From positions 2,654,177-2,718,176 of the forward strand of contig OY763926.1 in the NCBI GenBank assembly GCA_963667715.1: 64,000 nucleotides of DNA, written 5' to 3'. The notes below the pieces were generated by a model. That model had not been told where the DNA came from, did not search any database, and saw nothing but the letters and a program-made list of their open reading frames with translations. Below, piece after piece: positions 27,281 to 27,919 of the stretch. Source of the stretch: Sedimentisphaerales bacterium. GTDB lineage: Bacteria > Planctomycetota > Phycisphaerae > Sedimentisphaerales > SM23-30. Position 1 is the first letter of the stretch, and each line of letters starts with the position of its first letter. Both the position numbers and the translations under genes were made by a program.

Positions 27281-27919
27281 ATGTCACATAAAAAGAACTG
27301 GATAATAATAATGTTACTGACGCTATCAGCAAATCTTCTTGCTGGAGCTTACACTTTTGATACTGCAAGCGGTCAGTCTGTACTCGTCGATGTCGAATCA
27401 TGGTCTGGCACCGGCAGCAACGAAACGATACTGGTAGTAGACTGGAATCGCCTTGATAATGGTCTTGAAACGGTAAGCGAATCTCACGCTTTCGGCTATC
27501 GCTGGGATGGCAGCCAAACAGTTGCTGATATGCTGGATGTTTTTTCTAATGATGGCACCCTGGCAATTACAAGCGGGTACGGTGGAGCCTTTATATATAA
27601 CATTGGCTACTACGATGTTGCAGACGATGAAGTTCATATGCACATAGAAGAAGGGAGCTGGAACCTGGCAAGCACAGATAATGCCTACGCACAATGGGGA
27701 ACCTGGGGCAACTCTGAGTGGGACTTTAATACGGCTGGTATCGATGCAGAATATCTTACTGATGGCAGTTTTGAAGGAATAAATGCAATCACCTGGTTTA
27801 GTACGCTGCCGGATTACGCCGACGATCAGCTAGACATTCCGTTTGTAGTGCCGGAACCATTAACAGTTATTAGCTTGAGTGCTGGATCTTTACTTGCACT
27901 AAGAAGAAGGCAAAGATAA
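27281..27919 (+). CDS. Secreted PEP-CTERM-anchored protein with a DUF4430/transcobalamin-C-terminal-like sequence pattern
   Basis: It has a signal peptide and a C-terminal 'VPEPLTVISLSAGSLLALRRRQR'. The core 'ILVVDW ... TVADMLDVFS ... ITSGYGGAFIYNIGY ... WNL ... LTDGSFEGINAITWF' resembles the DUF4430 beta-grasp pattern. This is recalled from memory and not computed. GGAGA Shine-Dalgarno sequence upstream. Confidence 0.8.
   Translation: MSHKKNWIIIMLLTLSANLLAGAYTFDTASGQSVLVDVESWSGTGSNETILVVDWNRLDNGLETVSESHAFGYRWDGSQTVADMLDVFSNDGTLAITSGYGGAFIYNIGYYDVADDEVHMHIEEGSWNLASTDNAYAQWGTWGNSEWDFNTAGIDAEYLTDGSFEGINAITWFSTLPDYADDQLDIPFVVPEPLTVISLSAGSLLALRRRQR

Follow-up and report, generated by a model that had tools for sequence, protein, structure and literature searches.

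The operon considered here lies in a stretch of 64,000 nucleotides (nt) from a Sedimentisphaerales bacterium (contig OY763926.1, positions 2,654,177 to 2,718,176), referred to below as the window, and consists of four genes, W1 to W4, which all read on the + strand and follow one another at spacings of 22 nt, 28 nt and, finally, a 1-nt overlap between the stop codon of W3 and the start of W4. Our subject is the second of these genes, W2 (27281..27919, +), an open reading frame (ORF) of 212 amino acids (aa) that opens with ATG and has a Shine-Dalgarno GGAG 9 nt 5' of its start. From the sequence alone, an earlier note had taken its product for a PEP-CTERM protein whose core recalls the domain at the C-terminus of transcobalamin (TC), i.e. 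a B12-binding beta-grasp of the DUF4430 type; the ORF as well as every sequence block quoted there are found in the translation, namely ILVVDW at residues 50-55, GSQTVADMLDVFSNDGTLAITSGYGGAFIYNIGY at 77-110, SWNL at 126-129, WGTWGNSEW at 139-147 and AEYLTDGSFEGINAITWF at 156-173.

Three parts can be told apart in the W2 protein. Residues 1-23 (MSHKKNWIIIMLLTLSANLLAGA; 27281..27349, +) read as an N-terminal signal peptide composed of two lysines, a hydrophobic core and A-G-A, which forms a helix at residues 4-19 with a low predicted local distance difference test score (pLDDT) in the structural model described below; the cleavage site is a putative one, and A21 and Y24 are nearly invariant in the family. 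The globular domain that follows (residues ~24-175; 27350..27805, +) is predicted to be a divergent TC-like SLBB/DUF4430 beta-grasp. The C-terminus, which together with the stop codon occupies 27848..27919 (+), has the form VPEP-LTVISLSAGSLLAL-RRRQR, so that the P-E-P motif, the hydrophobic transmembrane helix and the basic end cluster of a PEP-CTERM sorting tail are all present. The anchor read into the sequence earlier is recognised by one of the two current models only, the tail scoring 17.3 bits against TIGR02595 of NCBIfam (cut-off 16) and 13.4 bits against Pfam PF07589 (cut-off 20.7), the latter of which matches 59 of 64 aligned W2 homologs at E<=10, with a VPDSG-CTERM model matching 22. 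An exosortase was not found among the 40-odd window ORFs of at least 150 aa that were scanned.

Judged by its pattern of conservation, W2 is a real gene under selection. At E<=0.01 it has 153 homologs, and 19 alignment columns are invariant, including four tryptophans and one histidine; the invariant residues comprise the run S-H69-A-F-G-Y-R-W75 as well as W127, W139 and W147, and H119 and H121 are nearly invariant. Searched against 1.84 billion representative sequences, the family profile matches 832 clusters (50% identity), many of which are multidomain proteins carrying the domain in 2-5 copies, and among 141 distant family representatives the sorting signal is of the PEP-CTERM type in 63 and of the type IX secretion system (T9SS) type in 22. 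Weak matches of the homologs to Pfam models (Imm32 and Amidohydro_3 among them) were judged to be spurious or derived from the tail, as were source names like ‘EppA_BapA family’ and ‘Ice-binding protein’.

The placement of this gene under a B12 riboswitch, which the earlier note had assumed, was borne out by an Rfam scan of the whole window, in which a single family was matched, the cobalamin aptamer RF00174 at 25852..25968 (+), reaching 74.3 bits over model positions 49-166 (gathering score 31.5; E 1.9e-16), and in which no cyclic di-GMP (c-di-GMP) aptamer was found. The best-scoring sigma-70-like promoter candidate of the region lies 25 nt 5' of the aptamer (25798..25827, +) and, as a consensus match, combines TTGACG, an 18-nt spacer and the extended -10 element TG-TATAGT, 10 of 12 positions of the whole site matching. 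Starting 75 nt past the aptamer, a GC-rich hairpin (26043-26069) with the stem CCCATGCC / GGCATGGG and an 11-nt loop is followed by seven T residues, the whole terminator-like element occupying 26043..26076 (+). It was found by reading the sequence, since its loop exceeds the 8 nt to which the pattern scan was limited, and it appears in both the minimum free energy and the centroid folds of 25965-26085 (z = -1.9 for the entire stretch). This hairpin is likely to be the expression platform of the riboswitch and to act as an OFF switch: aptamer and terminator would stop transcription of the operon when intracellular coenzyme B12 is sufficient, and the operon proteins would therefore be made under B12 limitation. 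Between the putative terminator and the start of W1 there remains a leader of ~360 nt (26077-26439), which holds no + strand ORF of 50 aa or more and carries on its minus strand a terminator-like hairpin at 26190-26163; in orthologous loci the leader varies from ~135 to ~880 nt.

How general is this arrangement? Among 41 loci taken from species-representative genomes of Planctomycetota (including Phycisphaerae and Pirellulales), Desulfobacterota, Verrucomicrobiota, Armatimonadota and Spirochaetota, an Rfam scan found 37 to be preceded on the coding strand by a cobalamin-class riboswitch; three of the remaining four are cut by contig ends, and the fourth is a paralog preceded by a c-di-GMP riboswitch only. 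The association is kept in three further loci from cultured genomes (L045-L047). With this record, regulation of the operon in response to B12 is close to certain. The gene content of the cassette is kept as well: a W3 homolog adjoins W2, mostly just downstream of it, in ~35 of the 41 loci, and W1 is present in ~15, while W4 is kept in the cassettes of Planctomycetota/Phycisphaerae, Verrucomicrobiota and Armatimonadota, usually as the last gene. In the cultured phycisphaeran Sedimentisphaera cyanobacteriorum, the riboswitch, W2, W3 and the pseudopilin encoded by the W4 homolog are followed on the same strand by the B12 salvage and transport genes cobT-cobS-cobC-btuF-btuD-btuC-cobA/btuR-cobU-cbiA. 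No TonB-dependent receptor gene occurs within +/-10 kb of that cassette, and a TonB-dependent BtuB is absent from it and from the cassette in the window. In Desulfosarcina BuS5, W1, W2 and W3 follow a DUF4465 (BtuJ-type) gene, which thus stands two genes 5' of W2.

In Bacteroidota, the same domain keeps similar company. P0155 is encoded directly behind a riboswitch, and P0138 (L044 4859-7624) is the last gene of an operon in which the riboswitch is followed by a TonB-dependent receptor and by a gene homologous to BtuG (E 2e-53 against the chain of 8BLW that represents BtuG1). Because the C-terminal part of P0138 shares 39% identity with W1 (E 6e-36), four W2-type domains and one W1-type domain are fused in this protein, and P0170 unites W2-type domains with a DUF5074 (BtuG-type) propeller and Big_2 repeats. 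Tandem arrays of 2-5 W2-type domains recur in these and other T9SS-tailed proteins of the Bacteroidota type (P0125, P0143 and others).

The fold of the W2 domain was approached from its sequence and from a predicted structure. The check first suggested for the DUF4430 assignment, an hmmscan against PF14478, returned nothing: neither W2 nor any of its 64 aligned homologs matched at E<=10 (the gathering threshold being 23.8 bits), and the sorting tail alone gave a match when Pfam and NCBIfam were scanned with these sequences. As PF14478 is now defined, W2 is, on its sequence, not a member. The human TC beta-domain, used as the positive control, itself scores just 30 bits, so that the model is too narrow for the W2 branch. 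A chain of intermediates nevertheless leads from one to the other. The T9SS-tailed proteins P0138, P0155 and P0158, presumably from Bacteroidota, are matched both by the W2 family profile (E 1e-18 to 1e-32) and by PF14478 (E 1e-13 to 1e-17); two single domains cut from them, P0155_d2 and P0158_d3, cover PF14478 positions 2-71/72 with 26.8 and 27.1 bits, above the gathering score, and the two models match the identical ~125 residues. When the W2 family was aligned with these bridging domains by hhalign, the probability was 99.2% (E 2.7e-19) over W2 residues 37-115, and 8 of the 141 distant family representatives are themselves PF14478-positive. In a low-stringency profile alignment extending over the whole domain, GSWNLAST falls opposite YWMYAVN, AGIDAEYLTDGS opposite YGIDSQPLTNGDV and ITWF opposite IYWEY, and two insertions specific to the W2 family, DNAYAQWGTWGNSE and FEGINA, stand out against DUF4430. 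The order of DUF4430 blocks claimed at the outset was in this way reproduced from SWNL onward, whereas its ‘LVVDF’ block falls outside the Pfam model, because PF14478 starts at the helix.

The AlphaFold2 model of W2, built on the 64-sequence alignment, has a mean pLDDT of 90.7 and a predicted template modelling score of 0.82, with pLDDT values of 93-98 for residues 21-140 and of 89-98 onward to residue 190. Its predicted topology comprises strands at 47-54 and 68-75, a helix at 81-90, a hairpin at 95-99/104-112 and strands at 117-120, 127-132 and 163-169; two N-terminal strands and a Trp-rich insertion (residues ~133-147) are extra features of this beta-grasp. The transcobalamin-like clade of SLBB beta-grasps is marked out by a hairpin inserted directly after the helix (Burroughs et al. 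2007, PMC1796856), and precisely this element is present in the model. When the comparison with the transcobalamin beta-domain that had been proposed was carried out with Foldseek, human TC in the TC:CD320 complex and the isolated human TC beta-domain (5no0, 5np4) came out as the best matches in the PDB, together with 3u7z, in which RUMGNA_00854 of the DUF4430 family was solved, and with the TC of cattle and rat; against TC and 3u7z the probability is 0.98-1.00 and the TM-score 0.56-0.69, normalised to targets of ~100 aa. Intrinsic factor ranks lower (probability 0.72-0.77), and the beta-grasps of SAMP1, Urm1 and staphylokinase rank under the TC-type matches. The E-values of ~1e-2 are marginal, for which reason this line does not suffice alone.

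Could the likeness to transcobalamin then be a generic coincidence among beta-grasps, with W2 an unrelated PEP-CTERM surface protein that has no part in holding a ligand of the B12 pathway? The direct failure of PF14478, the Foldseek E-values and the fact that the structure is a predicted rather than an experimental one would all fit such a view. Against it stand the bridging domains, which satisfy both the family profile and PF14478, the precedence of TC-type matches over all other beta-grasps, the clade-specific hairpin and a genomic context that is overwhelmingly B12-related, and we regard it as highly improbable. On predicted fold and remote homology taken together, W2 is very probably a divergent member of the TC-like SLBB/DUF4430 superfamily, and the core proposed for it in the earlier note is thus supported by structure, by bridging homologs and by block mapping alike. 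Another identity, that of a scavenger receptor cysteine-rich (SRCR) domain, was raised by short matches to PIT54 and CD163 (WGT..D..WD; E 6e-3 to 0.4), which were all that the family profile found among PDB sequences; it was rejected because none of the matched stretches is significant by itself and the fold predicted for W2 is not of the SRCR type. Residues 139-150 of W2 (WGTWGNSEWDFN, window 27695-27730) do resemble the SRCR motif WGT(V/I)CDD.WD, a resemblance judged to be a short convergent motif; within the insertion that sets the W2 family apart from canonical DUF4430, this stretch shows the highest conservation.

The first gene of the operon, W1 (26440..27258, +), encodes a secreted PEP-CTERM protein of 272 aa (25.6 bits for the sorting tail) that has more than 1,670 homologs and may contain a BtuH-like jelly-roll domain. 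The top PDB match of its AlphaFold2 model (pLDDT 87.4) is 8blw_B (E 5.8e-5, probability 1.0), which represents BtuG1/BtuGH in the BtuB1G1 complex of B. thetaiotaomicron, with generic discoidin and jelly-roll domains ranking behind it, and a diverse W1 profile run against PDB sequences found only 7BIZ (BtuH2) and residues 392-473 of 8blw_B, at E ~0.05. The part of 8blw_B concerned lies beyond the propeller, and the aligned segment reads ...GG.I.v.F...I.N....DF.v.(E/G)N.F, which in BtuH2 (G-N-x-F) holds Asn399 and Phe401 of the B12/metal site. W3 (27948..29069, +), of 373 aa and likewise predicted to be secreted, has no family match in the Pfam/NCBIfam scan. Its N-terminal domain is homologous to W1 (hhalign of the two families, 99.4%, E 5e-21, over a common domain of ~200 residues), and its C-terminus (window 28800-29066; profile positions 289-333) resembles cellulosomal dockerin type I at E 8e-4 to 2e-2, which suggests that W3 docks onto another surface protein via this dockerin-like module. 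The Desulfobacterota homologs of W3, of ~290 aa, seemingly have a PEP-CTERM-like tail instead of it. On sequence and model evidence, the BtuH likeness of W1 and W3 is suggestive and provisional.

W4 (29069..29839, +) encodes a prepilin-type pseudopilin of 256 aa, in which an N_methyl segment (30.4 bits for PF07963 and 27.8 bits for TIGR02532) is followed by DUF1559 (25.6 bits for PF07596) and a weak H-X9-DG motif. DUF1559 is a massively expanded planctomycetal family without known function, and the searchable literature was found to hold no mention of it together with cobalamin. A DUF1559/H-X9-DG pseudopilin belongs to the cassette in the window and to those of ~25 other loci (L045 12405-13187 among them), which provides a first functional context for a member of this family. 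At some distance from the operon, window positions 58521-61841 encode a 793-aa secretin of the GspD type and, after it, a protein with a VWA domain; secretins are the kind of outer-membrane channel with which a pseudopilin such as W4 would work.

Taken together, these findings are best explained if W2 is an exported, surface-anchored corrinoid binder acting in a B12-capture operon, a reading to which we assign a probability of roughly 0.6; that the protein touches the corrinoid directly is, on the strength of genomic context, rated equally. In this scheme W1, W2 and W3 would be exported, W2 via Sec, and W1 and W2 anchored by their PEP-CTERM tails. W2 would bind a corrinoid (cobalamin, another cobamide or cobinamide) with the face that is used by the transcobalamin beta-domain, formed by the hairpin after the helix and by the strand carrying the invariant Trp127, and its invariant aromatic and His-rich residues are of the kind expected of a corrin pocket. 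W2 and the BtuH-like W1 and W3 might then constitute a reservoir or hand-off chain, or else sandwich the ligand between them as the alpha and beta domains of transcobalamin do, and the captured corrinoid would move on to the import machinery of the envelope and feed uptake and salvage, with the W4 pseudopilin as a candidate link. That such a binder could stand alone is plausible because the isolated TC beta-domain retains cobalamin and cobinamide unaided (PMC5599065).

Several points weigh against this interpretation. The C-terminal half of W2 aligns to DUF4430 at low confidence only. A hhalign comparison of the W2 family with an alignment of mammalian TC beta-domains found nothing, a result that is uninformative rather than negative because the TC alignment was shallow (six close sequences, the homolog search having yielded mammalian fragments only); the PF14478-positive bridging set failed the same comparison. 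Run against PDB sequences, the W2 family profile matched no transcobalamin, and the profile of the bridging domains matched neither TC nor 3u7z. The link of W1 and W3 to BtuH consists of one Foldseek match and of the E ~0.05 sequence matches; it is provisional because a deeper, less diverse W1 profile lost BtuH2 and BtuGH and gave no PDB match at all, and the W3 profile did not match BtuH2/BtuGH among PDB sequences either. Corrinoid-binding data for any bacterial DUF4430-type protein were not found in the searchable literature, SLBB domains bind diverse ligands (PMC1796856), and some products of B12 operons, among them BtuL and BtuK2, are regulated by a riboswitch and do not bind cobalamin.

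The case of BtuL and BtuK2 makes a non-binding role the main rival. W2 would then be a TC-like accessory or scaffold protein, regulated by B12, that organises, tethers or presents W1 and W3 in the exopolysaccharide/PEP-CTERM layer, the corrinoid being held by W1 and W3 only. Such a role would suit the near-constant adjacency of W2 and W3, the stalk- or spacer-like repetition of the domain in Bacteroidota and the heavy remodelling of the canonical C-terminal DUF4430 motifs in W2. What it accommodates poorly is the conservation of W2, for 19 invariant columns with four tryptophans and a histidine among them are rare in spacer domains, and the precedent of the fold, whose one well-characterised family binds B12 with this same domain, even in isolation. 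BtuL, moreover, has a receptor L-domain fold unrelated to that of W2 and was rejected as a non-binding homolog of it. On balance, a scaffold role appears unlikely.

A second alternative grants W2 a ligand, albeit a different one (haem or another tetrapyrrole, a corrinoid precursor, a lower-ligand base or a polysaccharide), and makes its link to B12 secondary. It draws on the ligand diversity of the SLBB superfamily, in view of which the reviewers of PMC1796856 warned against assuming B12, and on Desulfobacterota genes that are also placed under c-di-GMP or c-AMP-GMP riboswitches and hence tied to surface and biofilm physiology. PEP-CTERM proteins are, besides, linked to exopolysaccharide production. 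These arguments have to be set against the near-universality of the cobalamin riboswitch across phyla, the co-operonic cob/btu salvage and transport genes, and the fusion of W2-type domains to BtuG- and W1-type modules, also within a BtuB-BtuG operon; another ligand is accordingly considered quite improbable, and corrinoid capture by an anchored W2 remains the preferred reading.

An extension of this preferred reading would make W1-W4 an unrecognised, BtuB-independent corrinoid acquisition system of the Planctomycetota-Verrucomicrobiota-Chlamydiota (PVC) group and Armatimonadota, in which the corrinoid would be captured by W1-W3 and handed off to a W4 pseudopilus that carries or guides it through a secretin-type outer-membrane channel to BtuFCD. 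We consider this extension rather improbable; if true, a member of the planctomycetal DUF1559 pseudopilin expansion would for the first time have a function, and a bacterial counterpart of transcobalamin's B12-binding domain would for the first time have been demonstrated.

How does W2 compare with proteins already known? With the beta domains that form the C-termini of transcobalamin, intrinsic factor and haptocorrin it has in common the clade hairpin, the best PDB matches and the PF14478-positive intermediates, and all of these proteins are extracellular, W2 by prediction, and tied to B12 supply. Unlike them, W2 lacks an alpha/alpha-toroid partner domain and fails the PF14478 hidden Markov model; compared with TC, it is extended by two N-terminal strands bearing a W-x-G-x-G-x-N-E motif and has the invariant S-H-A-F-G-Y-R-W strand, insertions at residues ~133-147 (Trp-rich) and 164-169, a PEP-CTERM anchor and riboswitch control. 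The bacterial DUF4430 protein RUMGNA_00854 (3u7z) is, like W2, a stand-alone or repeated TC-like beta-grasp of the cell surface (TM-score 0.64-0.69), although the W2 sequence, unlike those of bacterial DUF4430 proteins, is too divergent for the Pfam model. Cell-wall-anchored TC-like SLBB proteins of Gram-positive bacteria were predicted to be B12 scavengers (PMC1796856), the same role as that proposed here for the W2 family. The hosts of the W2 family are, by contrast, diderm (Planctomycetota, Desulfobacterota, Verrucomicrobiota and others), anchoring depends on exosortase or T9SS instead of sortase, and the partners are BtuH-like proteins and a pseudopilin instead of CbiO/CbiQ.

The surface B12-binding lipoproteins of Bacteroides, BtuG, BtuH, BtuJ (DUF4465) and BtuK (PMC10404256, PMC8941943, PMC12751083, PMC13398666, PMC13616437), resemble W2 in being riboswitch-repressed accessory proteins that are surface-exposed (as predicted for W2) and encoded in multi-protein B12-capture loci, and W2-type domains even occur inside the BtuB-BtuG operons of Bacteroidota. 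Yet W2 is not a lipoprotein, and its predicted beta-grasp differs from the propeller of BtuG and BtuK, from the jelly-roll of BtuJ and from the BtuH domain, so that none of the characterised bacterial surface B12 binders has its fold. The B12-binding fold of BtuH was itself described as having no recognizable structural homologs and has so far been reported from gut Bacteroidota only; should the likeness of W1 and W3 be confirmed, B12-binding domains of this type would also occur in Planctomycetota, Desulfobacterota and other phyla.

That bacteria scavenge B12 with TC-like proteins is not a new idea, having been put forward by Burroughs et al. (2007, PMC1796856); a test of that prediction was not found in the searchable literature. 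What is added here is a large branch, sorted by PEP-CTERM or T9SS signals, that current domain databases leave blank, together with its near-universal control by riboswitches and its fixed association with putatively BtuH-like proteins, joined in PVC bacteria by a DUF1559 pseudopilin. The W2 family is thereby placed in a conserved B12-starvation cassette of Planctomycetota/Phycisphaerae, Verrucomicrobiota, Armatimonadota and Desulfobacterota, in which vitamin uptake is essentially unstudied. If W2 does bind corrinoids, the B12-binding beta-domain of transcobalamin would for the first time have a bacterial counterpart that is open to experiment.

The survey also bears on the tandem adenosylcobalamin (AdoCbl)/c-di-GMP-I (c-AMP-GMP) riboswitches of Desulfobacca acetoxidans, which act as ‘NOT A AND B’ gates and whose controlled genes were left unidentified by Sherlock et al. 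(2022, PMC9481103), who speculated about conductive pili. The ORF directly behind cluster 3 of Desulfobacca is the W2 homolog P0011 (profile E 2e-108) and its neighbours are W2- and W3-type genes, so that the genes under these logic gates can now be identified as W2/W3-type; the locus in the window differs in having a cobalamin riboswitch alone. Whereas 2-3 such tandems, all from D. acetoxidans, were counted by Sherlock et al. (2022, PMC9481103), at least 14 adjacent pairs of cobalamin and c-di-GMP-I-class riboswitches, 60-250 nt apart and in either order, were seen in 10 Desulfobacterota loci (L005, L006, L011 (three pairs), L012, L013, L027, L028, L036, L039 and L046 (three pairs)), where they precede W1-, W2- and W3-type genes. 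With both aptamers in tandem, expression would therefore need low B12 and, at the same time, high c-di-GMP, i.e. a surface or biofilm state. Other riboswitch arrangements occur as well: the genome of locus L003 (Thermodesulfobacteriota) encodes a second W2 paralog, which has a c-di-GMP-I-GGC riboswitch only (L029 7378-7491), and in the Spirochaetota locus the AdoCbl-II class RF01689 replaces RF00174 (L034 6006-6080).

Some minor observations concern the surroundings of these cassettes. In Desulfosarcina BuS5 (L047), W1-W2-W3 is bracketed by several transposases and by a pair of identical group II introns that carry reverse transcriptase genes (6367-8502 and 11974-14109). The sole DUF4465 gene there is a fragment of 106 aa, and the locus therefore seems to have been rearranged recently. 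In the window, the GC content stays at 0.42-0.45 throughout the operon and shows no compositional anomaly pointing to recent transfer. The genes around the operon are unrelated: upstream lies one for an M16 peptidase, and downstream a convergent gene is followed by those for an HDOD protein, DnaG and RpoD. Farther upstream, positions 554-10037 hold a cluster of the corrinoid-dependent methyltransferase type, with genes for a 4Fe-4S protein (554-1738), a flavodoxin (4393-4881) and an iron-containing alcohol dehydrogenase (5381-6571), then for a methyltransferase like URO-D/MtaA to which a thioredoxin-like domain is fused (6604-8433), for a GTPase of the CobW family (8434-9363) and for a corrinoid protein that binds B12 (9408-10037). 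The corrinoid methyltransferase genes at 5381-10037 indicate that scavenged corrinoids are of use to this organism.

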